Of a DNA stretch of 32,000 nucleotides, positions 1,555 to 16,822 are shown one piece after another; within the stretch, counting starts at the first letter, position 1; each line of letters begins with the position of its first letter. The position numbers and the translations under genes are program-made. The stretch comes from Haloferax volcanii DS2 (GTDB taxonomy: Archaea; Halobacteriota; Halobacteria; Halobacteriales; Haloferacaceae), in the NCBI RefSeq assembly GCF_000025685.1, contig NC_013964.1, positions 1 to 32,000 on the forward strand. The letters run 5' to 3'. A model generated the notes under the pieces. The model searched no databases, was not told the origin of the DNA, and worked only from the letters and a program-made list of their open reading frames with translations.

Positions 1555-2712
1555 ATGGACGAAGAGTTACGCTCGTTGCTCACGAGTCTCGTCGAAATCG
1601 AGACCGAGAATCCGCCGGGGGACGAGGCGGCGGCGGCGCAGTTCGTGTCCGACTGGCTGGACTCCCGAGGCGTCTCGGCGACGCTCGTCGAGGAACCGTT
1701 CCCCGACCGACCGCAGGTCGCGGCCCGCGTCGGCGACGGCGAACCCTCGGTCGTCCTCAACGGCCACCTCGACGTGGTCCCGGCGGGCGACCGAGACCAG
1801 TGGACCCATCCACCGTACGACCCGACCGTCAGAGACGGCAGACTGTACGGTCGCGGGAGCGCGGACATGAAGTGCGGCGTCGCCCTCGCGATGCTCGCGA
1901 CGGTCGAGTTCGCCGACGCGTTCGAGTCCGGCGCGCTCGACGGCTCGCTCGTGTTCCACGCTGCCGTCGGCGAGGAGACGGCCGAACCGGGGACGAAGAC
2001 GCTCCTCGAACGCGGCTACGACGGCACCTACGGCGTCGTGCTCGAACCGACGGCGTTGCGGACCGCGACGAGCGCGAAGGGGCTCGGTTGGTACGAGATT
2101 TCCGTCGGCGGCGACCCGTCGCACGCGAGTCGGCCCGACGAGGGGGACAACGCGATTGGGAACGCTCGTCCCGTTCTCGACGCGCTCGAAGCGTACGACG
2201 AGGAGATTCGGGCACGCTCCGACTCGCTCGTCGGTCGCCCGACCGCGACGGTCACGCGGTTCGAGGCGGGGACGAAGGAGAACGTCGTTCCGGAGAGCGC
2301 GACCATCACGGTCGACAGGCGGTTCGTCCCCGCTGAGACAGTCGAGGAAGTCGACGCCGAAATCGACGCGCTGCTCTCCGACGTGACGGCCGAACACGAC
2401 CTGAACGTCGAGTGGACGCGAACGCGAGTCTACGAATCGGCGGCGGTTCCGACCGACAGCGACATCGCGGCGCGCTTTCGGGACGCGGCCGCCGAGCGGG
2501 CGGATATCGACCCCGAGCCGTGGGGGATTCGGGCGGCGACCGACGTTCGGAACCTCGTCAACGACGCCGGGATGGACGCGATTACGTGGGGGCCGGGGTC
2601 GATGGCGCAGGCCCACGCCTACGACGAGTACATCGAACTGTCGGAGGTCGAAGCCGGGTACGACATCCTCCGCACGGCGCTCCGCGGGCTGTTCGAGGCC
2701 GGCGCAGACTGA
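1555..2712 (+). CDS. M20-family metallopeptidase (ArgE/DapE-like deacylase)
   Basis: Motifs NGHLDVVP and GRGSADMKCG with a later EE pair, in the typical M20 catalytic plus dimerisation layout. 385 aa, acidic. Confidence 0.85.
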   Translation: MDEELRSLLTSLVEIETENPPGDEAAAAQFVSDWLDSRGVSATLVEEPFPDRPQVAARVGDGEPSVVLNGHLDVVPAGDRDQWTHPPYDPTVRDGRLYGRGSADMKCGVALAMLATVEFADAFESGALDGSLVFHAAVGEETAEPGTKTLLERGYDGTYGVVLEPTALRTATSAKGLGWYEISVGGDPSHASRPDEGDNAIGNARPVLDALEAYDEEIRARSDSLVGRPTATVTRFEAGTKENVVPESATITVDRRFVPAETVEEVDAEIDALLSDVTAEHDLNVEWTRTRVYESAAVPTDSDIAARFRDAAAERADIDPEPWGIRAATDVRNLVNDAGMDAITWGPGSMAQAHAYDEYIELSEVEAGYDILRTALRGLFEAGAD

Positions 2713-2759: not shown

Positions 2760-3179
2760 CTATTCGACGAGTTCTTCGAACCGCTCGACCGCGGCGCTCG
2801 CGACCGCCATGTCTTCGGACACCTCGCCGCCGCTGACGCCGACGGTCCCGACGAGTTCGCCGTCGACTTCGAGCGGATAGCCGCCGCCGAAGACGACGAG
2901 TCGATTCTCGTCCGTCGTCTGGAGGCCCCACAGCGACTCGCCGGGCTGGCTCCCCTCGGCGAGTTCGTGCGTGGGCATCTGCAGCGCGGCCGCCGTGTAC
3001 GCCTTGTTTCGAGAGATGTTGACGCTCGCCAGCCACGCGTCGTCCATTCGGTGCTGTGCGATGAGGTTACCCTCCGGGTTCGCGACCGTAATCACCATTC
3101 GCAGCCCCATCGACTCGGCTTCCGCTTCCGCCGCTTCGATGAGTGTCTTCGCCGTCTCGAGATTGATTGCATCGGACAT
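2760..3179 (-). CDS. GlcG/HbpS-like (DUF336) putative heme-binding protein
   Basis: 139 aa with the family-typical ending GGGYPL...GxxGVSGG and the NISRNKAYTAA segment. Confidence 0.75.
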   Translation of the reverse strand: MSDAINLETAKTLIEAAEAEAESMGLRMVITVANPEGNLIAQHRMDDAWLASVNISRNKAYTAAALQMPTHELAEGSQPGESLWGLQTTDENRLVVFGGGYPLEVDGELVGTVGVSGGEVSEDMAVASAAVERFEELVE

Positions 3180-3413
3180 ATCGCTTCGTCGAAACCGGTC
3201 TCGACGGCCCTACTTATACGTGCGCCGCGGGTCTCGAACGAGCGGCCGATTTCGCTCCTCTCTCCCGATTTCGGGCGTCTGAGTGACCCTCGAACGACGC
3301 TGACGGGAGAACAACAACTATTGGTTCTCTTATACTTATTGTCAACCCTCGGAATCGGGTCGAAGACGCATCGAGAAGACGTTCGGTTCGAGGCGAACCG
3401 ACCCGATAGCCGG

Positions 3414-4661
3414 TCAGTCGTACAGCGGGTACTCGGCGGTCAGTTCGTCGACCTTCTGGTCGACGAACCCCTCGACCGACTCGTCGTGCGGCGCGTCGAC
3501 GATTTCGTAGATGAGGTCCGCGACGGTCCGGCAGGCCTCCTCGTCGAAGCCGCGGGTCGTCAACGCGGGCGTGCCGGCGCGAATCCCGCTCGGGTTGAAC
3601 GCCGAACGACTCTCGCCGGGAACCGTGTTGGCGTTGAGGACGATACCGACCTCTTCGAGCGCCGCTTCCACGTCCTTGCCCGTCGTGTCCGGGTGCGACG
3701 GCCGGAGGTCGACAAGAACTAAGTGCGTGTCAGTCCCCTCGGAGACGAGTTCGAGGCCGCGTTCCTGTAACCGCTCGCCGAGGGCGGCGGCGTTATCGAC
3801 GACCTGCGAGGCGTACTCCTCGAACTCGGGGGTTAGCGCCTCGCCGAAGCCGACGGCCTTGCCGGCGACGTTGTGCAGTATCGGTCCGCCTTGGAGGCCG
3901 GGGAAGACCGCGGAATCGACGTCGTCGGCGTGTTCCTCGTCGCACATGATGATGCCGCCGCGACCCGACCGAATCGTCTTGTGGGTCGAGCCGGTGACGA
4001 AGTCCGCGGTGCCGACGGGCGACGAGTGTTCGCCCGCGGCGACGAGGCCCGTGATGTGGGCGATGTCGGCGAGGTGGTACGCGTCGACCGAGTCGGCCGC
4101 GGCCTGTACGCGCTCCCACTCGACCTCTCGCGGGTACGCGGAGTAGCCCGAGATGATGATGTCCGGGTCGAACGCCTCGGCTTTCGCGGCGAGTTGGTCG
4201 TAGTCGACGTAGCCCGTCTCGGCGTTGACCTCGTACTGTTCGACCTCGTACGTCTTCCCCGCGACGTTCACCGGGTGGCCGTGGCTCAGGTGGCCGCCGT
4301 GGGTCAGGTCCAAGGAGAGAATCTTGTCGCCGGGGTCGAGCACGGCGAGGAACACGCCCATGTTCGCCTGCGAGCCCGAGTGCGGTTGGACGTTGACGTG
4401 CTCCGCGCCCCAGAGCTCCTTGGCGCGGTCGATGGCGAGCTGTTCGACCTCGTCGGCGTACTCACAGCCGCCGTAGTACCGGCTCCCCGGGTAGCCCTCG
4501 GCGTAGTTGTTCGTCAGTTCCGAGCTTTGGGCCTCCATGACCGCCTCGCTGACGTGGTTCTCGCTCGCTATCATGGCGAGCGTATCGTTCTGTCGTTCGC
4601 GTTCGCCCGCCAGCGCGTCGGCGACGGCCGGATCGGTCCCTCGAACGGTGTCGTAAGGCAT
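3414..4661 (-). CDS. glyA: Serine hydroxymethyltransferase
   Basis: Motifs LIASENHVS and GSTHKT (PLP lysine), and SHMT-like over its full length. Start trimmed to MPYDTVRG (ATG at 4661); the 58-codon upstream extension in the ORF track is basic and implausible. Confidence 0.93.
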   Translation of the reverse strand: MPYDTVRGTDPAVADALAGERERQNDTLAMIASENHVSEAVMEAQSSELTNNYAEGYPGSRYYGGCEYADEVEQLAIDRAKELWGAEHVNVQPHSGSQANMGVFLAVLDPGDKILSLDLTHGGHLSHGHPVNVAGKTYEVEQYEVNAETGYVDYDQLAAKAEAFDPDIIISGYSAYPREVEWERVQAAADSVDAYHLADIAHITGLVAAGEHSSPVGTADFVTGSTHKTIRSGRGGIIMCDEEHADDVDSAVFPGLQGGPILHNVAGKAVGFGEALTPEFEEYASQVVDNAAALGERLQERGLELVSEGTDTHLVLVDLRPSHPDTTGKDVEAALEEVGIVLNANTVPGESRSAFNPSGIRAGTPALTTRGFDEEACRTVADLIYEIVDAPHDESVEGFVDQKVDELTAEYPLYD

Positions 4662-4684
4662 CGTGGGTGCATCTCGACTCTGCG

Positions 4685-4691
4685 GTATAAC
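4685..4691 (-). promoter_or_regulatory. TATA-like box (minus strand, within CGTTATACC) for leaderless glyA
   Basis: Centred about 27 nt upstream of the glyA ATG at 4661. Confidence 0.45.
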
Positions 4692-4796
4692 GCTTCGCCG
4701 TCCCCCGAGACGAGGGCGGTACGCCGAACCAGAACCACAACGTGACAGGACGCGCACGTTCTGTGTTCGGGTCGATGAGCGCGGTGAGTGCCGCTT

Positions 4797-4817
4797 GGAT
4801 ATCTTCGAAAGATATCC
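4797..4817. promoter_or_regulatory. 21-bp palindrome GGATATCTT-cga-AAGATATCC in the divergent glyA / dehydratase intergenic region
   Basis: The two 9-bp arms are perfect reverse complements with a 3-nt centre. It lies in the middle of the 362-bp divergent region. Confidence 0.5.
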
Positions 4818-5023
4818 TGAATTGGGTTCGCTCACGGCCGAAATCGACGTATTACGTGTTCAGTTCTCACCGAGACGAGTACCCACCGGCGATAGCTCTA
4901 TATTGGAACTTCGTCACGTCTCTCACATACCGTGCCAAGAACTATCACAGACCACGGAACGTCCCGAGGGGACACGCGCACGCCCCGGCGAGCCGTTCGG
5001 CCGACCGCCGAGGTGAGCCGCCG

Positions 5024-6265
5024 ATGAGTGAGGTCGAGTCCCTCCCGGTGCAGTACAGCGACATCGAGCGCGCGAGCGAGCGACTCGAAAACGACCGCGT
5101 CGTCAAGCGGACGCCGATAGAGCGGAGCACCTCGCTCGGTGACCTCGTCGGCGCGGACGTCTACCTGAAGATGGAACACCTCCAGTGGACGGGGTCGTTC
5201 AAGACGCGCGGTGCGTACAACAAGATTCGACAGGATACCGACCGCGGCATCGACGAGTTCGTGGCCGCGAGCGCCGGTAATCACGCGCAGGGCGTCGCGC
5301 TCGCGGCGACCGAGTGCGGGGCCGACTCCACGGTCGTGATGCCGGAGAACGCCCCGCAGACGAAAATCGACGCGACGCGCGACTACGGCGCGGAAGTCGA
5401 ACTCGTCGGCGAGGACTTCCAGGAGACGATGGCGTACGCCCAGTCGCTCGCCGAGGAGTCGGACGCCGAGTTCGTCCACGCGTACGACGACTGCGACATC
5501 GTGGCCGGACAGGGAACGCTCGGCGTCGAGATGTACCGCGACCTCCCCGAGATGGACACCGTGGTCGTCCCCATCGGCGGCGGCGGGCTCATCTCGGGTA
5601 TCGCCACCGCCATCAAGCACCACGACCCCGAGATTCGCGTCGTCGGCGTGCAGGCTGAGGGCGCGGAGACGGTCCACGAGAGCCTCGACAAAGGCGTTCC
5701 CGTGACGCTCGACGACACCAACACCATCGCGGACGGCATCGCCACCGGCGGCATCTCCGAGTTGACGCTCCGAACCATCGAGGAACACGTCGACGAGGTC
5801 GTCACGGTCTCCGACGGGGAAATCGCGGAGGCCATCCTCCTCTTGCTCGAACGCGCCAAGCAGGTCGTCGAGGGTGCCGGTGCCGCCTCCGTCGCCGCCG
5901 TGCTGAGCGACGACCTCGACGTCGAGGGCGAGACCGTCATGCCGCTTCTCTGCGGGGGCAATCTGGACATGACGATGCTCCAGACGGTGCTCGTCCACGC
6001 GCTCACCAGCCGTCGCCAGACGCTCCGTCTCCGGGTTCGAATCCGGGACGAACCCGGCGAGATGGCGCGACTCTCCCGGCTCATCGCCGACCGCGACGCG
6101 AACATTCACGACGTTCGCCACGTCCGCGCCGTCGACGCCCTCGACGTCGGCGAGGCCCACCTCCTGTTCCGCATCGAGACCAAGGGAGCCGAACACGCGG
6201 CGGCCGTCGTGGACACGATAGAGGACGCGGGCTACGCGGTCGACGACGTTTCGGAGCCGAGCTAG
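5024..6265 (+). CDS. PLP-dependent threonine/serine ammonia-lyase (dehydratase) with C-terminal ACT-like regulatory domain
   Basis: SFKTRGA (PLP lysine), GGGGLISG glycine loop, and a C-terminal region of about 90 aa resembling a regulatory domain. Start taken at the ATG at 5024 (MSEVESLP), which is preceded by GGTGA 8 nt upstream. Confidence 0.88.
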   Translation: MSEVESLPVQYSDIERASERLENDRVVKRTPIERSTSLGDLVGADVYLKMEHLQWTGSFKTRGAYNKIRQDTDRGIDEFVAASAGNHAQGVALAATECGADSTVVMPENAPQTKIDATRDYGAEVELVGEDFQETMAYAQSLAEESDAEFVHAYDDCDIVAGQGTLGVEMYRDLPEMDTVVVPIGGGGLISGIATAIKHHDPEIRVVGVQAEGAETVHESLDKGVPVTLDDTNTIADGIATGGISELTLRTIEEHVDEVVTVSDGEIAEAILLLLERAKQVVEGAGAASVAAVLSDDLDVEGETVMPLLCGGNLDMTMLQTVLVHALTSRRQTLRLRVRIRDEPGEMARLSRLIADRDANIHDVRHVRAVDALDVGEAHLLFRIETKGAEHAAAVVDTIEDAGYAVDDVSEPS

Positions 6266-6419
6266 CGCCCGGTTCCTCGGTCTCGACCGTTCTCGCAGCC
6301 GAATCCCGAATGCCTCTCGATTTGATACGACGTGTGAGATGCGGCGGGACGCGGCTTGAACGACGAACGCACTGATGTCCTCTCCGCGAAGCGACTCACC
6401 GATACCGACGAAGCGTCCG

Positions 6420-7298
6420 CTACGTCTCTCCGGCCGATTGCCGGATGCGCGCCACGACGTCTTCCCGACTCACGTCGGGGTCGTCGTCGGTCGTGAGTCG
6501 GCCCATCACGAATTCGAGCAGGTCGAGGTCTTGGAGCAGGTCGAGCGCGTCCATGCGTTCGAGGTCGAGCGCCTTGCCGAACTCGTAGACGGTCTTGGCG
6601 TCGTTGGCGGCGTCGGCGAGTTGGTCGATTGTGACGGACTCGGGGAGGCCGATGCCGTCGGCGAGCGCCTCGGGCGACCCGTCGCCGTCCGCCGCGGGTG
6701 CCGGTGGTCGCTCGACGCCCGTCGGGTCGCCGGCGAGCGACGTTTCGTACGACGACGGTTCGTGGACGCCTTGGTCGATCATGTACCTGCGGACCGTCTC
6801 GTCCGTCACGTCCATCTCGAAGGCGTCGGCCATCCGCTCGAACGTCTCGTACCGCGCGTACACGGCTTCGAGGTACGTCGTGTCTTCGAACGCCGGCACG
6901 TTCGGGTTCCGAACGGCTTCGTGCGGTTCGGAATCGGCGTCGTCGTCGGCCGTCTCGGTTGAACTCGTCGTCGGCGCATCGGTCGCGACCGTGACGACGA
7001 CCGCCGGGTCGCCGTCGAGCGAGACGTCCGCGGCGTCGACGGCGACGTGCTCGCGGTCGCTCGGCAGCACGTCGTCGACGCCGAGCGTGAGCCCAATCGA
7101 CCCGTCGGAGTCGAGCGACGCCCCTCGGATTCGAACGGGGATGTCGCCGTCGGCGTCCGACGAGAGCGCGAACTCGACATCCGCGGACGCGCCCGAGTCC
7201 GTGACCGTCACGGACGACTCGCGGACGCTCGCGGCGTCCGTCCGCTCGCACTCTTCGAGGAATTCGCCCAGCCGCCGAAGCGATGTACCCACGCTCAT
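6420..7298 (-). CDS. Acidic hypothetical protein (N-terminal beta-rich region, Thr/Asp linker, two helical C-terminal segments that may be HTH-like)
   Basis: 292-aa ORF with haloarchaeal acidic composition. I recognise no motif. It is divergent from the HTH_10 gene. Confidence 0.6.
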   Translation of the reverse strand: MSVGTSLRRLGEFLEECERTDAASVRESSVTVTDSGASADVEFALSSDADGDIPVRIRGASLDSDGSIGLTLGVDDVLPSDREHVAVDAADVSLDGDPAVVVTVATDAPTTSSTETADDDADSEPHEAVRNPNVPAFEDTTYLEAVYARYETFERMADAFEMDVTDETVRRYMIDQGVHEPSSYETSLAGDPTGVERPPAPAADGDGSPEALADGIGLPESVTIDQLADAANDAKTVYEFGKALDLERMDALDLLQDLDLLEFVMGRLTTDDDPDVSREDVVARIRQSAGET

Positions 7299-7540
7299 TG
7301 TCCGTTTCGACGGACGCGCCGAGACTCCCTGAAAAGCGGTGTGGAATACTGAGTCAGTTTATATAGCCCCACAGAATATGCGGCGAAAAGTATAAACAAA
7401 AATCTAATGTTCACACTACTATATCGTGCCCACGAGAAACGCTTCTGTCGCGAGCGTCGACGCGAGTTCGCGACCTTCAACCGAACCGGCAGTCCGGCTT
7501 CCCCGGTGTCGAATCTCTGTATCCACGAGGTGAAGACACG

Positions 7541-8191
7541 ATGAGTCTGATAACCGTTGCCGACATCGCGCACGACGACCTCGCGCTGACGCCGACGATT
7601 CAGTCGGAGGCCGCGAGCGAGATAGACGTCATCTCTCAATCCGCGACCGACCCCGAGACCGGCCTGTTTTTCTTCGTCGTGAAGGGCGCGGACGTCTCGG
7701 CGTTCGAAGCGGCGCTGGAGGTCGACCACACGGTCAGCGACTGGCAGCTCGTCTCCGAGCGGGAGGAGTCGGCGGTGTATCGCATCGGACACACGCCCGA
7801 CACGATTCTCCTCTCGCCTATCATCACGGAACTCGGCGGGCTCATGCTCGACGCGTGCAGCAACGACACGGCGGGCTGGCGGGTCCGGCTCCAGCTTTCG
7901 GACCGCGAGGCGCTCTCAGAGGTGTGGGTGTACTGCGAGGCGAACGACATCTCCTTCGAGCTGAACCGGATGTTCCGACAGGACGGCTGGATGAACGGCG
8001 AGCCGAGCAAGCTGACCGACGCCCAGCGCGACGCGCTCGTCGCCGCCTACGAACACGGCTACTTCGAGGAGCCGCGAGAGGCGGCGCTGGACGACCTCTC
8101 GGAAGTACTCGACATCTCGCCGACGGCCGTCAGCGGACGCATCAGGCGGGGGACCGCGGAGCTGGTCGAGTCGATTCTCCTCGACGAGTGA
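7541..8191 (+). CDS. HTH_10 (bacterio-opsin-activator-type) transcription regulator
   Basis: C-terminal LTDAQRDALVAAYEHGYFEEPREAALDDLSEVLDISPTAVSGRIRRG is the canonical HTH_10 signature. Confidence 0.85.
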   Translation: MSLITVADIAHDDLALTPTIQSEAASEIDVISQSATDPETGLFFFVVKGADVSAFEAALEVDHTVSDWQLVSEREESAVYRIGHTPDTILLSPIITELGGLMLDACSNDTAGWRVRLQLSDREALSEVWVYCEANDISFELNRMFRQDGWMNGEPSKLTDAQRDALVAAYEHGYFEEPREAALDDLSEVLDISPTAVSGRIRRGTAELVESILLDE

Positions 8192-8219
8192 CGGAATAAC
8201 CCCCGAAGAAAGGCGGGAG

Positions 8220-8594
8220 TCAGACCGCGAGGACGTAGTCGTCCTGCGGTTCGTAGATTTCGCCGCTCATCCGCAGGTCGCGGACGGCGTCGAGCGTTTC
8301 GCCGATGGCGACGCCGTTGTCCGCGAGCGCCGCGGCGAGCCGCCCGAGTTCGACGCCGTCGGGGTGGTCCTCACCGAGTTCGGTGAGCGCCGTTTTCACG
8401 CCGTCGCTCTCGACGTCGACGTCGAACGCGACGCGCTCCCACTCGACGTCGTGGCCGGTGACGTTCGCGTGTCGCCGGTACAGGTCGACGGCGTCGTTCG
8501 GCTCCGTGACGGAGACGTGGAGGTCGCACGCCGGGCAGGTGACGACGCCGGCGTGTGGTTTTTCGGCTAGTTTGGCACTCTCGTCGTCAGGCAT
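8220..8594 (-). CDS. Small acidic protein with a C2H2-like metal site and a probable winged-helix C-terminus; translationally coupled to the Rieske oxygenase
   Basis: 124 aa, with C20-x2-C23-x18-H42-x5-H48. The C-terminal GEIYEPQDDYVLA resembles a wing hairpin. Its ATG (8592-8594) lies inside the last codons of the upstream gene (minus-strand ATGCCTGA, an 8-nt overlap). Confidence 0.7.
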   Translation of the reverse strand: MPDDESAKLAEKPHAGVVTCPACDLHVSVTEPNDAVDLYRRHANVTGHDVEWERVAFDVDVESDGVKTALTELGEDHPDGVELGRLAAALADNGVAIGETLDAVRDLRMSGEIYEPQDDYVLAV

Positions 8595-9729
8595 TGTACG
8601 CGTCCTGCGCGAGGCGGTGCAGTTTGTGGACGGTGTGTTCGTTCGGACCGAGCTGTGCCTGCCCGAGCGCGCCGGACGTGAGCCCCTCGTACTGGCGTTC
8701 GACGAGCTCGAAGTCCTCTTCTTGGAGCTGCCGGCTCGTCTGGACGAACTTCTCTTCTTCTTCGGACAGCTCGGAGTCGCGGAAGTAGTAGTCCGCGATG
8801 AGCTGGAAGCGCCCCTCGTCGATGGGGTCGATGATGTACGTGCCGTAGCCGTCGGCGGTGCCGTACATGTTGACCGTGAAGTTCGGCCAGAAGTAGTAGA
8901 ACTTGGCCTCGTGTTCGGGGTGGATGCGCATCTCGTCGTCGACGTCCTCTTTGTGCTTGTAGTGAAGCACCCAGTGGTAGTCGTTGACTTCGAGTTCGGA
9001 CTCCATGAGTTCGAGTCCCTGCACCCAGTCTTGGTGGTTCGCCTGACAGTGGTCGCACTCCGAGTAGTTCCCGCTGAACGTCTTCCAGTTGCACTCGACT
9101 TCGGAGACGTAGCGCCGGGCGTGTTCGTACTCACCGAGCGGCAGGTCTTCGAGTTCCGTCTTCATCTCCCCGGCCTGTTCGGCAAGCGAGAGGCTCGGTT
9201 CGTCCTCGAAGTTGACGAACACGAGCGGCCCGATGGCGTCGGTGTTGACCTCCATGAGGCCGTTTTCTTCGGGGTCGAGTTCGCTGACGGCGTCGTCGTC
9301 GAGGTCGGGATTCAGACTCGCCTCCTCGAAGCTCTTGGGGGTGCTCTGGAGCGACCCGTCGAGTTCGTACGCCCAGAGGTGGTACGGGCAGGTGATGCGG
9401 CTGAGGCTGCCGGGGTCGGTCATCGGCGTGTCGTCGAGCATCTTCGACCCGCGGTGGGCACAGACGTTGTAGAACGCCCGCACGTCGCCCTCGCCGTCGC
9501 GGGTGACGATTATCTGCTTGTCACCGATGGTTCGCGTGAAGTAGTCGCCCGCGTCCGGGATGTGGGTCTCGTGGCCCGCGTAGACCCAGTACCGACCGAA
9601 CACTTTCTCCTTTTCCATCTCGTGGACCTCCGGGTCGGTGAAGTACCTCGCCGGCAGCGCGTTCGTTTCCGCGGTGATGTCGGCACTTACCGCACCGATC
9701 TCGTCACGATTGTTATTCCACCGTGTCAT
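8587..9729 (-). CDS. Rieske [2Fe-2S] non-heme-iron oxygenase, alpha-subunit type; candidate quaternary-amine (glycine betaine) monooxygenase
   Basis: Rieske motif CAHRG...CPYHLW and mononuclear iron motif DHCQANH (H-x4-H). Start trimmed to MTRWNNNRDE (ATG at 9729). The substrate assignment comes from genomic context only. Confidence 0.88.
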   Translation of the reverse strand: MTRWNNNRDEIGAVSADITAETNALPARYFTDPEVHEMEKEKVFGRYWVYAGHETHIPDAGDYFTRTIGDKQIIVTRDGEGDVRAFYNVCAHRGSKMLDDTPMTDPGSLSRITCPYHLWAYELDGSLQSTPKSFEEASLNPDLDDDAVSELDPEENGLMEVNTDAIGPLVFVNFEDEPSLSLAEQAGEMKTELEDLPLGEYEHARRYVSEVECNWKTFSGNYSECDHCQANHQDWVQGLELMESELEVNDYHWVLHYKHKEDVDDEMRIHPEHEAKFYYFWPNFTVNMYGTADGYGTYIIDPIDEGRFQLIADYYFRDSELSEEEEKFVQTSRQLQEEDFELVERQYEGLTSGALGQAQLGPNEHTVHKLHRLAQDAYNA

Positions 9730-9771
9730 GGGAGGAAGAAACACACATCTGTGGAAAAGGATTCGTCGGAA

Positions 9772-9805
9772 ATAGTGGACCCGTATAAGTGGCGGTGGAT
9801 ATCCG
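9772..9805. promoter_or_regulatory. Bipartite motif ATAGTGGACCCG-N14-GATATCCG in the divergent Rieske / sarcosine-oxidase promoter region
   Basis: Both halves recur at 13472-13495 upstream of the dimethylglycine-oxidase-type gene, with N4 spacing there. Here a TATA-like GTATAAG/CTTATAC (9784-9790) lies between the two halves. Confidence 0.5.
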
Positions 9806-9926
9806 CGAGCGGCCGCCGTTCGGCGGCGAGCGCCGCTCTCGGCGGGCCGAGCGTCGTTCCTCTGAAAAAGGGGCTCCGTGATACAGGTCAAGAGTCAAGG
9901 GGGGACGTTCCGAACCGCCGGGCACA

Positions 9927-11069
9927 ATGAGTGTCCGCGACGACCGATACGATGTCGCCGTCGTCGGGGTCGGCGGGATGGGGAGCGCGACCGCGTACCA
10001 CCTCGCCGACCGCGGCCTCGACGTCGTCGGTCTCGAACGCTACGACATCCCTCACTCGCAGGGGTCGTCCCACGGCATCACCCGCATCATCCGCCGCGCG
10101 TACTACGAACACCCGTCGTACGTCCCGCTCATCGAGCGGGCGTACGACCTCTGGGACGACCTCGCCGACGAGACCGGCCGCGATATCATCCACCGAACCG
10201 GCTCCATCGACGCCGGCCCCGTCGACAACGACGTGTTCGCGGGTTCGAAACGCTCCTGTGAGGAACACGACATCCCGCACGAGGTGCTGACCGGCGCGGA
10301 GGTCAACGAACGATTCCCCGGCTACGAACTCCCCGAGGACTACCGCGCGGTCTATCAGGAAGACGGCGGGTTCGTCGTCCCCGAGCAGTCGATTATCGGC
10401 TATACCGAAGCGGCACAGGCCCGGGGTGCCGAAATCCGCGCCCGCGAACGGGTCGAAGACTGGGCGGAGACGAACGACGGCGGCGTGCGCGTCCGCACCG
10501 ACCGCGGCGTGTACGTCGCGGACGCGCTCGTGCTCGCCGCGGGCGCGTGGAACTACAAACTCGCTGACGCGCTCGACGGCCTCGCGATCCCCGAGCGACA
10601 GGCGCTCGCGTGGTTCCAACCCGAGTCGCCGGCGACGTTCGCGCCCGAGGAGTTCCCCGTCTGGAACCTCAGCGTCCCCGAGGGTCGGTTCTACGGCTTC
10701 CCGGTCCACGACGTGCCGGGGTTCAAACTCGGCAAGTACCACCACCGCGACGAGGAGGTCGACCCCGACGACTTCGACCGCGAGCCGAACCGCGCCGACG
10801 AGGCGATACTCCGCGATGTCACGGAGAAGTACTTCCCGGAGGCCGCGGGGCCGACGATGTCGCTCGCGACGTGTATGTTCACGAACTCGCCGGACGAGCA
10901 CTTCATCCTCGACACGCTGCCGGACCACCCGCAGGTCGCCGTCGGCGCGGGCTTTTCGGGACACGGCTTCAAGTTCGCCAGCGTCATCGGCGAAATCCTC
11001 GCTGACCGCGCCGGCGACGGCGAGAGCGACCTGCCGCTCGATATGTTCTCGCTCGACCGGTTCGAGTGA
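9927..11069 (+). CDS. Monomeric sarcosine oxidase / N-methyl-amino-acid oxidase family flavoenzyme
   Basis: N-terminal VAVVGVGGMGSATAYHLA (GxGxxG); a Cys in TCMFTNSPDEHFILD at the position of the covalent-FAD Cys of MSOX-type enzymes; GFSGHGFKF near the C-terminus. Confidence 0.88.
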   Translation: MSVRDDRYDVAVVGVGGMGSATAYHLADRGLDVVGLERYDIPHSQGSSHGITRIIRRAYYEHPSYVPLIERAYDLWDDLADETGRDIIHRTGSIDAGPVDNDVFAGSKRSCEEHDIPHEVLTGAEVNERFPGYELPEDYRAVYQEDGGFVVPEQSIIGYTEAAQARGAEIRARERVEDWAETNDGGVRVRTDRGVYVADALVLAAGAWNYKLADALDGLAIPERQALAWFQPESPATFAPEEFPVWNLSVPEGRFYGFPVHDVPGFKLGKYHHRDEEVDPDDFDREPNRADEAILRDVTEKYFPEAAGPTMSLATCMFTNSPDEHFILDTLPDHPQVAVGAGFSGHGFKFASVIGEILADRAGDGESDLPLDMFSLDRFE

Positions 11070-11225
11070 CGACGGGCGGTCGAGCTTGCCGCTCGTCAAC
11101 CGATTTGACGATATAACTTCCGTAAGTTTTCTTCATTTGCGTATAAATGCCTCTATTATCGAAGCCGACTTGTTATGATGTGTAACACCAATGGGTTGGT
11201 TGAATCGTGTGGGGTGTGGACTCGT

Positions 11226-11280
11226 GTCACGGTCGGTGCGGACGCGTCGAATCCGACGCGGGTCGTCTCTCGACGGTGAC
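11226..11280 (+). promoter_or_regulatory. Nested inverted repeat / stem-loop in the putative long leader of the BCCT transporter gene
   Basis: The outer arms GTCACGGTCG (11226-11235) and CGACGGTGAC (11271-11280) pair at 9 of 10 positions. The inner perfect 7-bp stem CGCGTCG/CGACGCG (11243-11249 / 11254-11260) has an AATC loop. Confidence 0.4.
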
Positions 11281-11359
11281 AGTGGGTGGCCCCAAAGCGG
11301 GGACAACGATATGACCGAACACGAATTCATCTGGCGGTCGTCAATGGAGGCTGTATCGA

Positions 11360-13114
11360 ATGGCGAATAGCAACGACTCGACCGGTCGGTCGACGAGCGA
11401 GTTACAGGAAGACCTGTTTTATCCCGATATGGAGCGCGAACCCGGTGACAGAAACATCCAGGGGTTGGGGTTCGACATCCATCCCGTCGTCTTCCCGGCC
11501 GCGCTCTTGATAATCGGCGTCTTCGTCGCTGCGACGCTCATTCTCGGTGAGCAGGCGGCGAGCGTCTATTCGGGTATCAGGGGCTTTTTCGAGGGGAACT
11601 TCGGGTGGTTCTTCCTCCTGTCGGTGAACCTCTTTATCGTGGTCTTGGCGTACTTCGCGCTGAGTAAGTACGGAAAGATAACCCTCGGCGGCGTCGAGGC
11701 GGAAAAGGAGTTCAGCGACTTCTCGTGGATGGCGATGCTGTTCAGCGCGGGCATGGGTATCGGGCTCATGTTTTACAGCGTCTCGGAGCCGCTGTACTAC
11801 TTCAGTAACGTCCCCGGCTTCTTCGACGCCGAGGCCGGGTCCGGCGGTGCGGGTATCGCCGCGATGACGCAGACGTTCTTCCATTGGCGGTTCCACCCGT
11901 GGGCCATCTACGGCCTCGTCGGCTTGGGACTCGCGTTCTTTTCGTTCAATCGGGGGCTGCCGCTCACGTTCCGGTCGATTTTCTGGCCGCTCCTCGGCGA
12001 GCGAATCTACGGCTGGCCGGGCCACCTCATCGACCTCGTGGCGGTGTTCGCGACGCTGTTCGGCCTCGCCACGTCGCTCGGCCTCGGGGTCGCACAGATA
12101 AACACCGGGCTGTCGTACATCCTCGGCGGGAGCATGCTCGGCGTCCTGAGCGTTCCGAACAACACCGGGATGCAAATCGCGCTCATCGCCGTGATTACAC
12201 TCATCGCTACCGCCTCTGTCGCGGCCGGCCTCGAAGGCGGTATCCGGCGTCTGAGCACGGTGAACGTCTTTCTGATGTTCGTGCTGTTGACGTTCGTGCT
12301 CGCCGCCGGCGCGACGATGAGCATCTTCGGCGCGTGGGTGCAGGGCCTCGGGAACTACTTCAGCGACTTCCTCTCGCTCGCGTTCTTCACCGGGACGCTC
12401 GGCGACGGCGCGTCCACCGTCAACGCTTGGACGGTGTTCTACTGGGCGTGGTGGATTGCTTGGTCGCCGTTCGTCGGGATGTTCGTCGCGCGCATCTCGA
12501 AGGGGCGGACGGTCCGCGAGTTCGTCTTCGGCGTGTTCGTCCTGCCGTCGCTGTTCTCGACGGTCTGGCTCTCGGCGTTCGGCGGGAGCGCGCTGTTCAA
12601 CTCGCTTCAGGGTAACGGCGCGGTCCTCGCGACCTACAACGAGGCCGGCCAGACGGTCGCCATGTTCGCGCTCCTCGAACAGTTCCCGTTCAGCGCCGTC
12701 TCGGGGCTGCTCGCCGTGACGCTCATCGTCACGTTCTTCGTGACCTCCTCGGACTCGGGGTCGCTCGTCGTCGACCATCTCACGTCGGGCGGCAAGCACA
12801 ACGTGCCGCGGACCCAACGCATCTTCTGGGCGGTCATCGAGGGCCTCGTCGCGTCGCTTCTCCTCTACGGCGGGGGTCTCGGCGCGCTCCAGACGGCGGC
12901 CATCGCGACGGGGTTCCCGTTCGCCGTCGTCCTCGTCATCATGTGCTACACGGTCTATCTCGGCCTCGACAAGGAGTACGAACTCCTGCAATCCGAGGAG
13001 TTCGCCGAGCGAATCGAGGACTTGGCGGACGAGGACATCGACATCGACGTCGGTCGCTCTCAGACGTCAGTCGTGACCAACGTCCGGCAGAACCCCGGCA
13101 CGACGGACGACTGA
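11360..13114 (+). CDS. BCCT-family (betaine/carnitine/choline) transporter
   Basis: Signature WTVFYWAWWIAWSPFVGMFVARISKGRTVREF, about 12 hydrophobic segments and an acidic C-terminal tail. Confidence 0.93.
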   Translation: MANSNDSTGRSTSELQEDLFYPDMEREPGDRNIQGLGFDIHPVVFPAALLIIGVFVAATLILGEQAASVYSGIRGFFEGNFGWFFLLSVNLFIVVLAYFALSKYGKITLGGVEAEKEFSDFSWMAMLFSAGMGIGLMFYSVSEPLYYFSNVPGFFDAEAGSGGAGIAAMTQTFFHWRFHPWAIYGLVGLGLAFFSFNRGLPLTFRSIFWPLLGERIYGWPGHLIDLVAVFATLFGLATSLGLGVAQINTGLSYILGGSMLGVLSVPNNTGMQIALIAVITLIATASVAAGLEGGIRRLSTVNVFLMFVLLTFVLAAGATMSIFGAWVQGLGNYFSDFLSLAFFTGTLGDGASTVNAWTVFYWAWWIAWSPFVGMFVARISKGRTVREFVFGVFVLPSLFSTVWLSAFGGSALFNSLQGNGAVLATYNEAGQTVAMFALLEQFPFSAVSGLLAVTLIVTFFVTSSDSGSLVVDHLTSGGKHNVPRTQRIFWAVIEGLVASLLLYGGGLGALQTAAIATGFPFAVVLVIMCYTVYLGLDKEYELLQSEEFAERIEDLADEDIDIDVGRSQTSVVTNVRQNPGTTDD

Positions 13115-13150
13115 CCGCGGAGCCACCGAACCGATGACTCGACGCTATCG

Positions 13151-13309
13151 ATGAACGCGCTCGCTGTCGTTTCGGCGGCGTTCGCGGTCTTCCTTTTCGT
13201 CGTTGCACTGTTCGCGATGACGGCCGGTGAGCTACGGGGCGCAGGTCTCGCGTTCCTGAGCGCCAGTCTCGTCATCTACCTCAGAGAGAAGCACCTCGTC
13301 GGCGAGTGA
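13151..13309 (+). CDS. Small two-helix membrane protein (52 aa), not in the ORF track
   Basis: My translation is MNALAVVSAAFAVFLFVVALFAMTAGELRGAGLAFLSASLVIYLREKHLVGE. It has two hydrophobic stretches separated by GELRG and starts 36 nt after the BCCT stop. I recognise no homology. Confidence 0.4.
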   Translation: MNALAVVSAAFAVFLFVVALFAMTAGELRGAGLAFLSASLVIYLREKHLVGE

Positions 13310-13471
13310 CTTTGTCGGCGGGTGACTCCGGTCAGTGCGCTCCTCGTCGGCGCACGGCTTTCGTCGCCGCGCGTGTACTCGTCGTTCTCTGACGCTGATT
13401 CTCGTCGGACCACGCGACGCACCCGTGGTGAGGCCCCTCCCTCGTCACCCCCCGGTATCTATACACCTCAG

Positions 13472-13495
13472 ATAGTGGACCCGGAGAGATATCCG
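13472..13495. promoter_or_regulatory. Bipartite motif ATAGTGGACCCG-N4-GATATCCG upstream of the dimethylglycine-oxidase-type gene
   Basis: Same two half-motifs as 9772-9805. It lies between a TATA-like CTATAC (13459-13464) and the ATG at 13523. Confidence 0.5.
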
Positions 13496-13522
13496 AAGGC
13501 CGCAGTCACTACTGTTTGGTAC

Positions 13523-16036
13523 ATGAACACATGGTCTACGTTTCCCGAACGCGCCGGAACGGTCGTCGTCGGGGCCGGCTGTGTCGGTTGTAGCGCGGCG
13601 TATCACCTCGCCGAGTCGGGTCGCGAAGACGTCGTCGTCCTCGACCGGGGTCCGCTGTTCGAGACCGGGGGGTCGACCTCTCACGCCCCCGGACTCGTGT
13701 TCCAGACGGCCGGGAACAAGCTGATGACGGAGATGGCGTCGTACACGCGCGACCTCTACGACGGGTTCGGTGACTTCCGGACGTGCGGCGGCATCGAAGT
13801 CGCCTACACCGAAGACCGCTGGGACTTCCTCAAACGCAAGCGCGAGTGGGGTCAGTCCTACGGCATCGACGAGGGCCAACTCCTCACGCCCGAGGAGGTC
13901 GAATCGCGCGTCCCGCAGATAAACGCCGACGTCATCTACGGCGGCTACTACGTCCCCTCGGACGGGAAGGCCGACGCCGTCAGCGCCGCCGAGTCGATGG
14001 CGGAGGAGGCGCGCGAGGCGGGCGTCGAGTTCTACGGCCACACCGAGGTCACGGACATCGACACTACCGACGGCAGCGTCGACGCGGTCGAAACCGAACA
14101 CGGCCGCATCGAGGCCGACGAGGTGCTCGTCGCCACGAACATCTGGGGGCCGCTGTTCGGCGAGATGGTCGGCACGGACATCCCGCTCGTCCCCTGCGCG
14201 CACCAGTATCTCGTCTCCGACGAACTGGACGAGCTCGAAGGCGCAGAGCGCGAAATCGAACAGCCGCTCCTCCGGCATCAGGACCACTCGCTGTACTACC
14301 GCCAGCACGGCGAGCGCTACGGCATCGGCTCGTACAACCACGAGTCGCTGCTGGTCGACCCGGCGGATATCTACGGGCCCGACAAGCTCGACGACCTCGG
14401 ACTCGAATACCCGTCGCTCCGGGAGTTCACGGAGGAGCATTTCTACGAGAACACCCACCCGGACCACGACCGGTCGGCGTTCGACGCCGCGAGCGAACTC
14501 GTTCCCGGCTTCGAGGACTGCGAGTGGACCTCCGCCATCAACGGCATGTTCTCGTTCACGCCCGACGGCATGCCCATCCTCGGGCCGGACGAGGACACCG
14601 AGGGTCTCTGGTGGGCGCTCGCCGTCTGGGTCACGCAGTCCGGCGGCGCGGGCGACATCGTCGCCAGCTGGATGGAAGACGGGACGCCGCGGCTCGACGG
14701 CTCCCGCGTCAACGCCTCCGGCGCGCACGTCTCCCGGTTCCAGTCGCACACGGGCAGCCGAGAGTACACCTACGGGCGCGGCGCGCAGCAGTACCGCGAG
14801 GTGTACCAACTCGTCCACCCGCGCGAACAGCCGGACGGACAGCGCGCGCTCCGTCGGAGCCCGTTTTACGACCGGCAGGCCGACCTCGGCGCGGAGTTCT
14901 ACGACAGCGACGGCTGGGAGGTCCCGCAGTGGTACGAGTCCAACGAGACGCTCCTCGAAACGTACGACGTGCCGGACCGCCCCGACTGGCTCTCGCAGAA
15001 CTGGTCGAAGGTCCAGGGCGCGGAACACCAGCATCTCCGCGAGAAGGTCGGCATGGTCGACATGACGACGTTCACGCCCATCGAAGTGTCGGGCCCGGGC
15101 GCGCTTGAGTTCCTGCAAGGGCTCCTGACGAACGACATGGATGTCACGCCGGGCCGGATGCGCTACTCCGCGATGCTCAACGAGGACGGCGGCGTACTCG
15201 CCGATCTGACCGTCGCCCGCCTCGGCGACGAGCGGTTCGTGCTGTTCACCGGGGGCGGAAGCTCGGCGACGCTCCACTCGCGGTGGGTCACAGAGCACGC
15301 GCCCGACGACGGCTCCGTCGACGTGACCGCACACGTCTCCAGTCGAACCGGTATCGGCGTCTTCGGCCCCGACTCCCGGAAGGTGCTTTCGGACCTCGTC
15401 GAGGCCGACCTCTCGAACGACGAGTTCCCGTTCTACTCCGCACAGGAGACCTACCTCGGTAGCATCCCCGTGACGATGCTCCGACTCTCGTACGCCGGCG
15501 AACTCGGCTGGGAAATCTACGCCCCGACCGAGTACGGAAGCCAGCTCTGGGACGCGATTCGCGAGGCCGGCGAGGAGTACGACATCGCGCCCGTCGGCTG
15601 GGCCGCGCTCGACTCGACGAGCATGGAGAAGGGATTCCGCCTGTGGGGGACGGACCTCACGCCCGAACACAACCCGTACGAGGCCGGCATCGGCTTCGCG
15701 GCCGACCTCGACACCGACTTCGTCGGGAAGGCGGCGCTCGTGGCGGACAAAAACGACGACAGCCCGAGCGACCGCATCGTCCCGATAACGCTCGACGAGG
15801 AGGAAGCCGTCGTCGACGCGGGCCACCCGGTGTTCGTCGACGACGAGGTCGTCGGCTACTGCTGTCGGGCCGACTACGGCTACACCATCGACGCCGGCAT
15901 CGCGTACGCCTACCTCCCCGAGGAGTACGCCAGCTCGGGGCAGGACGTCGAAATCCGGTACGAGGGTGACGCTCACCCCGCGACGGTCCGGTCCGGGCCG
16001 CTTTTCGATCCCGACCGCGACAAGATGATTCGGTAA
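13523..16036 (+). CDS. Dimethylglycine oxidase/dehydrogenase-family enzyme (N-terminal FAD oxidoreductase fused to a GcvT-like folate-binding aminomethyltransferase domain)
   Basis: VVVGAGCVGCSAAYHLA (GxGxxG), GGSTSHAPG, and a C-terminal GcvT-type region (SYAGELGWEIY). At 837 aa it matches the size class of bacterial DMGO. Start trimmed to MNTWSTFPE. Confidence 0.9.
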   Translation: MNTWSTFPERAGTVVVGAGCVGCSAAYHLAESGREDVVVLDRGPLFETGGSTSHAPGLVFQTAGNKLMTEMASYTRDLYDGFGDFRTCGGIEVAYTEDRWDFLKRKREWGQSYGIDEGQLLTPEEVESRVPQINADVIYGGYYVPSDGKADAVSAAESMAEEAREAGVEFYGHTEVTDIDTTDGSVDAVETEHGRIEADEVLVATNIWGPLFGEMVGTDIPLVPCAHQYLVSDELDELEGAEREIEQPLLRHQDHSLYYRQHGERYGIGSYNHESLLVDPADIYGPDKLDDLGLEYPSLREFTEEHFYENTHPDHDRSAFDAASELVPGFEDCEWTSAINGMFSFTPDGMPILGPDEDTEGLWWALAVWVTQSGGAGDIVASWMEDGTPRLDGSRVNASGAHVSRFQSHTGSREYTYGRGAQQYREVYQLVHPREQPDGQRALRRSPFYDRQADLGAEFYDSDGWEVPQWYESNETLLETYDVPDRPDWLSQNWSKVQGAEHQHLREKVGMVDMTTFTPIEVSGPGALEFLQGLLTNDMDVTPGRMRYSAMLNEDGGVLADLTVARLGDERFVLFTGGGSSATLHSRWVTEHAPDDGSVDVTAHVSSRTGIGVFGPDSRKVLSDLVEADLSNDEFPFYSAQETYLGSIPVTMLRLSYAGELGWEIYAPTEYGSQLWDAIREAGEEYDIAPVGWAALDSTSMEKGFRLWGTDLTPEHNPYEAGIGFAADLDTDFVGKAALVADKNDDSPSDRIVPITLDEEEAVVDAGHPVFVDDEVVGYCCRADYGYTIDAGIAYAYLPEEYASSGQDVEIRYEGDAHPATVRSGPLFDPDRDKMIR

Positions 16037-16200: not shown

Positions 16201-16217
16201 TACTTATCCTCCCGCTG

Positions 16218-16595
16218 TCACTCGTCTTCGACGGTCTTCAGGTCGAGCCGCGGGGCAAACGACTCGTACGTCTCGTCGCTCGAAACGATAGTGTCGCCAT
16301 CGGATTCGACGAGATGGAGCGCATCGAAGGGTGTGAACCCGTGGTCTTCGACGTAGGTCGCGGCCGTGAGAACCGTATCTACGTCCCCACGCACTTCCAA
16401 CAGCGCGGCGACGTTCGTGATGACCCGCTCCGTGTCCCGCTCTTCTCGGTACGCGACCATGAGGAGTTCGATGAGCGTGAACTGCGACGTCCACAGTTCG
16501 TCTCGATGGTTTCGGTAGACCGCCTCTGCGGCGTCGCCCAGCCAGTCTTCGTCCTTGATGAGCGCCAGTAGGAAGTCCGTCTCGGCTACATTCAG
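16218..16595 (-). CDS. vapC: PIN-domain VapC toxin lacking a canonical start codon (CTG in a CTGA overlap with vapB)
   Basis: Hand translation upstream of the tracked ATG continues in frame as NVAETDFLLALIKDEDWLGDAAEAVYRNHRDELWTSQFTLIELL, the N-terminal acidic PIN strand. The only start-like codon at the expected position is CTG at 16595-16593. Confidence 0.65.
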   Translation of the reverse strand: MNVAETDFLLALIKDEDWLGDAAEAVYRNHRDELWTSQFTLIELLMVAYREERDTERVITNVAALLEVRGDVDTVLTAATYVEDHGFTPFDALHLVESDGDTIVSSDETYESFAPRLDLKTVEDE

Positions 16596-16822
16596 CGGCC
16601 GGCCTCGTCGAGCGCCGCGTTCCGCGCTCCGCGACGGAGTTCTTCGGCCGTCTTCTCGACGTCCGCGAACTCGGTGCGGAGCGCACCGAGCGGGTCGTCT
16701 TCGATTGGAATCAGCTTGATACCGTCGTGCAGTTGGACGATGTGGTAGTGTTCGCCGTACCGCTCTCTGATCTCTTTAGGGAGCGTGAGGCGTCCGCGAC
16801 CGTCCAGCGTCGCTTCGGACAT
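16592..16822 (-). CDS. vapB: AbrB/SpoVT-fold VapB antitoxin
   Basis: The N-terminal GRGRLTLPKEIRERYG swapped-hairpin motif. 76 aa, located directly upstream of the PIN gene. Confidence 0.85.
   Translation of the reverse strand: MSEATLDGRGRLTLPKEIRERYGEHYHIVQLHDGIKLIPIEDDPLGALRTEFADVEKTAEELRRGARNAALDEAGR

Follow-up and report, generated by a model that had tools for sequence, protein, structure and literature searches.

A widespread haloarchaeal gene cluster on Haloferax volcanii pHV3 with a predicted role in the aerobic catabolism of glycine betaine and its demethylation products

In Haloferax volcanii DS2, the first 32 kb of the replicon pHV3 (NC_013964.1, positions 1 to 32,000, about HVO_B0001 to B0028; this whole 32,000-nucleotide stretch is called the window here) carry a gene cluster with a Rieske non-haem-iron oxygenase gene near its center. 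The cluster, at positions 2760-16036 (about HVO_B0003 to B0014), is the pHV3 copy of a gene set that is widespread in haloarchaea. We suggest, with somewhat better than even confidence, that it serves to break down glycine betaine and the products of its demethylation aerobically to pyruvate, with the Rieske enzyme acting as the demethylase. Our confidence in this full reading is held at that level by two considerations: the Rieske step is deduced from gene context, and it conflicts with a published rule that relates a Tyr or Asn residue to the reaction catalyzed (see below). An earlier reading made from the letters of the DNA (the sequence-only reading) had listed six genes between 3414 and 16036. 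Their coordinates are borne out by codon-position GC, by Pfam and NCBIfam scans and by the RefSeq gene models of the Haloferax alexandrinus plasmid, while five more genes in or beside that interval were missing from the list, i.e., those for the HbpS-like protein, HVO_B0006, the HTH_10/BAT regulator, HVO_B0008 and a 52-aa open reading frame (ORF). The predicted products of the cluster are as follows.

2760-3179, minus strand: HbpS/GlcG-like haem-binding protein HVO_B0003, accessory (Pfam HbpS-like, 143 bits)
3414-4661, minus strand: GlyA serine hydroxymethyltransferase (SHMT), plasmid copy (SHMT, 492 bits)
5024-6265, plus strand: IlvA-type, pyridoxal phosphate-dependent Ser/Thr ammonia-lyase with one ACT domain (PALP, 287 bits, and ACT)
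6420-7298, minus strand: HVO_B0006, an acidic three-domain protein
7541-8191, plus strand: HTH_10/BAT regulator HVO_B0007 (HTH_10, 55 bits; BAT, 40 bits), divergent from the Rieske operon
8220-8594, minus strand: HVO_B0008, a small zinc-finger and winged-helix protein (Pfam HVO_B0008_N and HVO_B0008_C)
8587-9729, minus strand: group V Rieske non-haem-iron oxygenase (Pfam Rieske and Ring_hydroxyl_A domains)
9927-11069, plus strand: SolA/MSOX-family flavoenzyme, 380 aa (DAO, 200 bits)
11360-13114, plus strand: BCCT transporter HVO_B0012, 'BetT' (BCCT, 582 bits)
13151-13309, plus strand: 52-aa hydrophobic membrane ORF between the BCCT and dimethylglycine oxidase genes, RefSeq-annotated and kept in Haloferax loci
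13523-16036, plus strand: dimethylglycine oxidase (DMGO), 837 aa (DAO, FAO_M, GCV_T and GCV_T_C)

In the proposed pathway, the BCCT carrier would import the solute, and a homotrimeric group V Rieske oxygenase would hydroxylate an N-methyl group of betaine, generating dimethylglycine and formaldehyde. The electrons for this step would come from a ferredoxin or a reductase encoded elsewhere. DMGO would then convert dimethylglycine to sarcosine, transferring the methyl carbon to tetrahydrofolate (THF) as 5,10-methylene-THF, and the monomeric sarcosine oxidase would oxidize sarcosine to glycine, formaldehyde and H2O2. GlyA would combine glycine and methylene-THF to form serine, from which the IlvA-type dehydratase would release pyruvate and ammonia. 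With the Rieske enzyme as the demethylase, the pathway is complete apart from the electron donor. Strong homology and conserved synteny back the core of the sequence-only reading, in which N-methylglycines are taken up and oxidized step by step to glycine, serine and pyruvate. The gene set is not self-contained, as had been claimed, because no electron donor for the Rieske enzyme is encoded nearby and no route is present for the two formaldehydes or for H2O2.

The conservation of the cluster was assessed by searching the Rieske protein against one genome per species, which gave 65 loci, and by comparing the window proteins with these loci using tblastn. In 26 of the 65, covering 14 genera and three orders, the genes for the Rieske protein, SolA, DMGO (at least 62% identity to the window protein) and IlvA lie within 10 kb. 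The genera are Haloferax, Halarchaeum, Halomarina, Haladaptatus, Natrialba, Halorussus, Natrinema, Halovalidus, Haloarchaeobius, Halogranum, Natribaculum, Halegenticoccus, Halalkalicoccus and Natronorubrum, and in several of them the cluster is chromosomal. All 26 of these type-1 loci have a match to HVO_B0008 and 17 have GlyA, while most of them also carry the HTH_10 regulator and the BCCT gene. The co-occurrence of the core genes is beyond chance, and the comparison of synteny across haloarchaea that had been proposed with the sequence-only reading thus finds the core genes together well outside Haloferax.

These data bear on one alternative, namely that the genes are mere neighbors and form no pathway: GlyA and IlvA would serve amino acid metabolism, the BCCT carrier osmoprotection, and the oxidases would have unrelated substrates. 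The genes indeed form at least six separate transcription units, with both strands used, and a transposon insertion in the BCCT gene came out of a hypochlorite-hypertolerance screen run on glycerol medium with no betaine added. However, the gene set has been kept in 14 genera and is joined elsewhere by one-carbon and THF genes, and we consider an accidental neighborhood highly improbable.

The genes that join the cluster were identified by ORF clustering together with Pfam and NCBIfam. The further recurrent neighbors are FolD, PurU, formate-THF ligase, a methylene-THF reductase (MTHFR)-like protein, a DmdA-like GcvT-only protein and RidA, whose gene adjoins that of the IlvA-type dehydratase in some genera. 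These neighbors fit THF-linked demethylation, one-carbon catabolism and a serine dehydratase. Moreover, there is a second cluster type, in which a Rieske paralogue (about 73% identity) is found with a DMGO paralogue (45-50%), HVO_B0006 and HbpS, without SolA, and in some genera two paralogues each of the Rieske protein and of DMGO are encoded in tandem. That paralogues of these two enzymes are paired again and again fits a quaternary-amine step that is followed by a tertiary-amine step.

Strong homology supports the steps from dimethylglycine onward. The DMGO-type protein aligns with Arthrobacter globiformis DMGO (PDB 1PJ5) with 604 bits, residues 13-833 against 7-826, and the covalent-FAD (flavin adenine dinucleotide) motif GGSTSHAPGLVFQT, with His48, is identical in the two proteins. 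The gene at 13523-16036 is predicted to encode an FAD- and THF-dependent dimethylglycine oxidase that would form sarcosine, 5,10-methylene-THF and H2O2 from dimethylglycine. The SolA-type protein scores 310 and 292 bits with PDB sarcosine oxidases and 207 bits with the E. coli N-methyltryptophan oxidase (MTOX). Aligned to 1EL5, it keeps Thr48, Arg49, Arg52, Lys265, His269, Cys315 and Lys348, while Tyr317 is replaced by Phe. Cys315 is the covalent-FAD site of monomeric sarcosine oxidase (MSOX), and the other kept residues correspond to carboxylate- and flavin-site positions. The gene at 9927-11069 is predicted to encode a monomeric sarcosine oxidase that would yield glycine, formaldehyde and H2O2 from sarcosine. 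Similarly, GlyA (NF000586, 576 bits; cut-off 335) and the dehydratase (TIGR01127, 454 bits; cut-off 378.75) have the homology expected of enzymes that would convert glycine and methylene-THF to serine, and serine to pyruvate and ammonia, respectively. The BCCT domain of the transporter (named HVO_B0012 in PMC6267482) is full length, model positions 1-484 of 485. Its top NCBIfam model is the glycine betaine BCCT with 512 bits, under the cut-off of 650, and the BetT model gives 440 bits, under the cut-off of 695.

Arthrobacter DMGO (1PJ5) and the MSOX of Bacillus and Thermomicrobium (1EL5, 7EXS) agree in domain order, and in the His and Cys sites of covalent flavin attachment, with the Haloferax proteins. 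The latter differ in being archaeal and acidic, in the Tyr317 to Phe change in MSOX and in being clustered with a Rieske oxygenase and a BCCT transporter. The description of the pathway as assembled from non-canonical parts does not apply to these two enzymes, which are of well-known Arthrobacter and Bacillus types.

Judging from its family signatures, the Rieske protein belongs to the group V (quaternary-amine) Rieske oxygenases. Among solved structures, CntA comes closest (6y8j; 137 bits over the full length, with 29% identity) and is the sole one to cover the catalytic domain; the aromatic-ring hydroxylases and Stc2 align to the Rieske domain only. The Rieske ligands C90, H92, C114 and H117, and the iron site residues H227, H232 and D339, each align to CntA ligands. 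The bridging Glu224 (E205 in CntA) and a Cys225/Cys228 pair lie within the motif NYSECDHCQANH, and a bridging Glu together with a Cys-x-x-Cys pair beside the iron site are features of group V [PMC7948474, PMC10952381]. Neither the window ORFs scanned nor the conserved neighbors included a beta-subunit family, which fits an alpha-only enzyme. The fold, the alpha-only architecture, the metal ligands, Glu205, Cys206/Cys209 and the pi-cation Tyr203 of CntA/YeaW (6Y8J) are common to the Haloferax protein. It differs from CntA/YeaW in its low overall identity, in the carnitine-binding residues, which are mostly changed, in having no CntB partner, in belonging to a separate clade and in its methylglycine gene context. 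Names in PLSDB, PGAP and JGI ('SRPBCC', 'aromatic ring-hydroxylating', 'carnitine monooxygenase subunit' and 'choline monooxygenase') are generic or inconsistent and were set aside.

Several observations weigh against betaine demethylation by this enzyme, or against the pathway as a whole. Quareshy et al. divided group V by the residue at position 203 of CntA [PMC7948474]. Group Va has Tyr or Phe at this position, comprises CntA, choline monooxygenase and OxyBAC, and catalyzes C-hydroxylation or C-N cleavage; group Vb has Asn, comprises GbcA, BmoA and Stc2, and catalyzes N-demethylation [PMC7948474]. The residue in the Haloferax protein is Tyr222, and all haloarchaeal paralogues have Tyr as well. 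The GbcA-like and Stc2-like reference sequences have Asn. The GbcA equivalog model NF058607 gives 131 bits for the Haloferax protein, with a cut-off of 670, and covers only positions 28-230 of 420. The same N-terminal-half-only pattern is seen for YeaW, a genuine carnitine oxygenase (154 bits). The Vb-type proteins of Burkholderia, Ralstonia and Sinorhizobium, which are stand-ins for the Vb clade and not GbcA itself, align over the full length of the model with 472-496 bits (cut-off 670). In a neighbor-joining tree with 100 bootstraps, the haloarchaeal Rieske proteins form a clade of their own (100%) and are excluded both from the Vb clade (83%) and from the clade that contains CntA and YeaW (97%). 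The sequence comparisons thus place the protein in a distinct group V lineage, and one with no characterised orthologue.

With respect to the electron donor, neither an FNR/GbcB-type reductase nor a ferredoxin is found in the scanned window ORFs or in the RefSeq annotation of the matching region, and no ferredoxin, FNR-type gene or other reductase family is conserved across the 65 loci. The SolA-type protein passes the NCBIfam MTOX model NF008425 (502 bits; cut-off 257), and it does not reach the cut-off of the MSOX model TIGR01377 (318 bits; cut-off 480). In view of the NCBIfam name N-methyltryptophan oxidase, sarcosine is only the probable SolA substrate. On one metagenome contig (Ga0136574_100073, here L076), DMGO (75% identity to the window protein), IlvA and a Haloferax-type BCCT occur with no Rieske or SolA gene within 10 kb, so that the lower pathway can occur without a nearby Rieske gene; the DMGO-centered search of metagenome contigs in which it was found gave 8 loci, too few to estimate how frequently DMGO occurs without a Rieske gene. 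Finally, Anderson et al. 2011 cite a lack of growth stimulation by betaine in H. walsbyi and a failure of H. utahensis to grow on betaine. The literature that we searched held no growth, expression or mutant data for the cluster and no experimental study of betaine catabolism in haloarchaea.

Taken together, the score of 131 against 670 bits, the Tyr in place of Asn and the position outside the Vb clade contradict the assignment of the Rieske protein to the GbcA/BmoA type in the sequence-only reading. The wider placement that was proposed there gave an intermediate outcome. The aromatic-ring hydroxylases match the Rieske domain only, and CntA is closest, yet with 29% identity and a changed pocket the protein is not clearly a CntA.

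The Tyr at the CntA-203 position also raises an alternative, since group Va holds the plant choline monooxygenases. In this alternative, the Rieske protein is a choline monooxygenase (CMO) and the cluster degrades choline via betaine, with betaine aldehyde dehydrogenase (BADH) and the conversion of betaine to dimethylglycine (e.g., by a homocysteine methyltransferase) encoded elsewhere. The KEGG-based scheme in Fig. S7 of Gomez et al. 2018 labels the protein CMO, JGI names some related bacterial proteins 'choline monooxygenase', and the BCCT carrier also resembles BetT with its 440 bits. Two steps would be left without genes, however, namely betaine aldehyde oxidation and the key demethylation of betaine. 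No aldehyde dehydrogenase is conserved beside the cluster, and the nearest one in Haloferax is generic, BADH not being its best model. Moreover, the choline-oxidation genes that are present beside the cluster in some genomes are GbsB/GbsA-like, which would make a CMO redundant. In Natronococcus jeotgali (L053, 14608-about 17500) and Haloterrigena salina (L058, 13000-16506), GbsB-like, BADH-like and BCCT genes lie beside the Rieske and DMGO genes. The best model of the GbsB-like iron alcohol dehydrogenase is the choline dehydrogenase GbsB (325 bits), and the BADH-like aldehyde dehydrogenase scores 507 bits. These genes cover choline oxidation in the two genomes, leaving the Rieske protein free for the betaine step. 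The tree also separates the haloarchaeal protein from P0126, with only 17% support for joining the clades; the comparison with CMO draws on the published Va/Vb rule and on this one JGI-named CMO sequence. On balance, we find a choline monooxygenase improbable.

A second alternative accepts the lower pathway as real and assigns the Rieske enzyme to another quaternary amine. It would carry out a CntA-like C-N cleavage of carnitine, gamma-butyrobetaine or betaine (the latter to trimethylamine and glyoxylate), or act on some other betaine, and dimethylglycine and sarcosine would come from outside the cell or from another betaine demethylase, for example a DmdA-like/MTHFR-like pair. That CntA is the best solved relative and the only one aligned over the catalytic domain is in keeping with this idea, as is the JGI name 'carnitine monooxygenase subunit' for some orthologues. 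A DmdA-like THF methyltransferase gene and an MTHFR-like gene adjoin the Rieske gene in Haloplanus and Halalkalicoccus, and L076 has DMGO and no Rieske gene. Nevertheless, the CntA pocket has been replaced: Tyr225, Phe258, Asn270, Tyr295, Tyr315 and Phe319 correspond to S/E, A/F, N/G, A, S and a gap, varying by alignment, so that at most one or two residues are retained and in the MAFFT alignment only Asn270. In addition, no CntB/YeaX reductase gene and no malate-semialdehyde or trimethylamine genes were observed in the neighborhood, and unrelated substrates can hardly explain the tight and widespread linkage of the Rieske, DMGO and SolA genes. We regard another substrate as rather unlikely, and betaine demethylation by the Rieske enzyme as the preferred reading.

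The DmdA-like and MTHFR-like genes adjoin the Rieske gene at L012 (3695-6367), L013, and L033 and L038 (about 11.6-16 kb), all in Haloplanus and Halalkalicoccus. The DmdA-like protein scores 243 bits with the model of the dimethylsulfoniopropionate (DMSP) demethylase, below its cut-off, and in Halalkalicoccus FolD and formate-THF ligase are added to the pair. Together, the two proteins may act on betaine or DMSP as a methyltransferase route that depends on THF.

Among the window ORFs scanned, a CntB/YeaX-type reductase gene is absent beside the Rieske gene. In the reference systems, the Burkholderia Rieske gene is followed by an FNR-type reductase gene and E. coli yeaW by yeaX. HVO_B0008, which has two Cys and several His residues, was considered as an electron carrier and rejected, since its model is a classic C2H2 finger with a winged helix. 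At L058 (1256-5904), and also at L036, L040 and L046, an aldehyde:ferredoxin oxidoreductase gene adjoins the DMGO paralogue, HbpS and Rieske genes, and at L040 and L058 a NuoF-like gene (flavin mononucleotide/4Fe-4S) is located beside it. One may speculate that oxidation of an aldehyde, formaldehyde or another, with reduction of ferredoxin could return electrons to the Rieske enzyme.

Five loci (L037, L042, L043, L053 and L055) carry a Rieske paralogue of 336-349 aa about 1 kb downstream of the full-length Rieske gene. The bridging Glu, the CxxC pair and the ligands of the catalytic iron are retained in the short paralogue. The two short paralogues that were aligned (P0096 and P0100) have lost each of the four Rieske-cluster ligands and give no PF00355 match. 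Mixed trimers of full-length and short Rieske paralogues are conceivable.

We also offer a more specific model, tentatively and with distinctly less than even confidence in it as a whole. In this model, quaternary-amine oxygenases have evolved independently in a third lineage, represented by the haloarchaeal Rieske clade, that would demethylate betaine through a CntA-like pi-cation binding by Tyr and not through the carboxylate-on-iron mode of GbcA and Stc2. Its electrons would be drawn from the general haloarchaeal ferredoxin pool, and no reductase of its own would be needed. The Rieske protein would work with HVO_B0008 and, in some genera, maybe with the paralogue that has lost the Rieske cluster, perhaps in mixed trimers.

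HVO_B0008 starts within the end of the Rieske gene, overlapping its stop codon by 8 nt. A tblastn match to it lies beside the Rieske gene in most loci, and a called ORF of the family in 30. Residues C20, C23, H42 and H48 are invariant, and in the predicted model (pLDDT 66) a winged helix comes after a beta-beta-alpha zinc finger. The top Foldseek matches of the model are MCM, Rpa2 and DtxR winged helices, with weak E-values. Judging from this model, HVO_B0008 looks like a DNA-binding or protein-binding factor. The HTH_10/BAT protein HVO_B0007 is likely the regulator of the cluster, in agreement with the expectation that the embedded regulators are archaeal, and the HTH_10 regulator adjoins the Rieske gene in about 30 loci. 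HVO_B0006 has no match in the Pfam and NCBIfam copies used, and its homologues are haloarchaeal only. In the AlphaFold model (pLDDT 73), a three-helix segment that resembles an HTH and contains an invariant TVRRYM motif lies between a beta domain and a C-terminal helical domain; the structure search returned no fold match. On the basis of the HTH-like segment of the model, HVO_B0006 is possibly a DNA-binding regulator. The HbpS-like gene occurs close to the Rieske gene in 13 loci; in the second cluster type, it lies immediately upstream of the Rieske gene.

Two intergenic regions share a 12-mer. One copy of ATAGTGGACCCG is located at 9772-9783 (plus strand) in the spacer between the Rieske and solA genes, and an identical copy is at 13472-13483 (plus strand), 51 nt upstream of the DMGO start. 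The loci of the seven other Haloferax species, which are close relatives, have the two copies as well, with at most 2 mismatches. The 12-mer is a candidate common operator, and may also be a chance match among all the spacers. GATATCC follows each copy. A 21-bp palindrome, GGATATCTTCGAAAGATATCC, lies at 4797-4817, between glyA and ilvA.

How does the cluster compare with known systems? In Pseudomonas and Chromohalobacter, betaine catabolism (GbcAB or BmoAB, DgcAB, SoxBDAG, GlyA1 and SdaB) follows the same order of steps, from betaine over dimethylglycine, sarcosine, glycine and serine to pyruvate. Dedicated extra copies of glyA and serine dehydratase genes, and a Rieske oxygenase as the first enzyme, are common to these bacteria and Haloferax. 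However, the Haloferax Rieske protein is of another subgroup (Tyr instead of Asn, outside Vb) and has no adjacent GbcB-type reductase. The sequence-only reading was right on the latter, since none occurs in the window ORFs scanned or in the matching RefSeq annotation. Compared with Pseudomonas, DMGO takes the place of DgcAB and monomeric sarcosine oxidase that of SoxBDAG, and the regulator is of the HTH_10/BAT type instead of the AraC-type GbdR.

The cluster had been put forward as a candidate undescribed pathway, although it has already been predicted in print. Anderson et al. 2011 (PLoS One 6:e20237) pointed out that DMGO and BCCT genes are neighbors in H. volcanii and in three more haloarchaea, and considered that betaine, dimethylglycine or sarcosine might be used. 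Gomez et al. 2018 (Genes 9:562) obtained the transposon insertion in HVO_B0012 in the hypochlorite-hypertolerance screen. In their Fig. S7, HVO_B0003 to B0012 and neighbors are drawn as a betaine/choline route with CMO, BetB, DMDH, SoxA1, GlyA1/2 and IlvA2, in which FNR-like proteins encoded elsewhere supply electrons and betaine is converted to dimethylglycine by homocysteine/methionine methyl transfer. In contrast, we propose the Rieske enzyme for the latter step. New here are the breadth of conservation (14 genera), the placement of the Rieske protein and the argument for this protein as the opener of the pathway over a CMO together with some other demethylase. Collectively, it is plausible that the cluster is an archaeal variant of a known catabolic pathway, predicted before.

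The G+C content of the window is 60-69%, with a strong third-position GC (codon-position GC), a haloarchaeal character. The interval 3414-16036 is 99.4% identical to the Haloferax alexandrinus megaplasmid, whose RefSeq annotation has the same gene models as the window, and 99.1% identical to the H. lucentense megaplasmid. Outside the cluster, two genes precede the HbpS-like gene.

81-1433: Orc1/Cdc6 gene, at the start of the window
1555-2712: M20 (ArgE/DapE-type) deacylase gene, between the Cdc6 gene and the HbpS-like gene

The M20 deacylase keeps company with the cluster in Haloferax only and is probably unrelated to it; a dipeptidase gene is also present in the betaine loci of Pseudomonas and Vibrio [PMC12093977]. 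On the other side of the cluster, 16212-18254 encodes a PIN-domain toxin, an AbrB/MazE antitoxin, a hypothetical protein and ParA. ParA, the toxin-antitoxin pair and the Cdc6 gene at 81-1433 are plasmid maintenance functions on both sides of the cluster, and the secondary replicon suspected in the sequence-only reading is pHV3. Further on, 18438-26834 encodes a permease of the SLC13/DASS family, another HTH_10/BAT regulator (20051-20704) and an ABC transporter of the Opp/Dpp type with a fused double ABC protein as its ATPase (780-aa ORF, 24492-26834). Xylose dehydrogenase genes lie at the end of the window. Rfam, tRNA and bacterial promoter scans of the window gave nothing relevant and no tRNA gene, and no transposase or integrase was seen among the window ORFs scanned. 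A mobile genomic island was not adopted as an explanation, given the ordinary G+C content, the lack of a tRNA gene and of a transposase or integrase among these ORFs, and the chromosomal location elsewhere. The term island, used in the sequence-only reading, is doubtful for the same reasons.

Among the organic solutes that are released into hypersaline waters, glycine betaine is one of the main ones. Bacteria are usually held responsible for its aerobic fate there, and haloarchaea are seen as using it for osmoprotection only. A conserved cluster in the genetically tractable H. volcanii makes betaine consumption by haloarchaea directly testable. If a Tyr-type enzyme does act as a demethylase, it breaks the Tyr/Asn rule of Quareshy et al. 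If, on the other hand, the Rieske protein turns out to oxygenate choline or carnitine, the DmdA-like/MTHFR-like pair becomes the lead candidate for the conversion of betaine to dimethylglycine in archaea. Should the tentative model of a third, independently evolved Rieske lineage be true, haloarchaea would be significant aerobic sinks for betaine in hypersaline systems.

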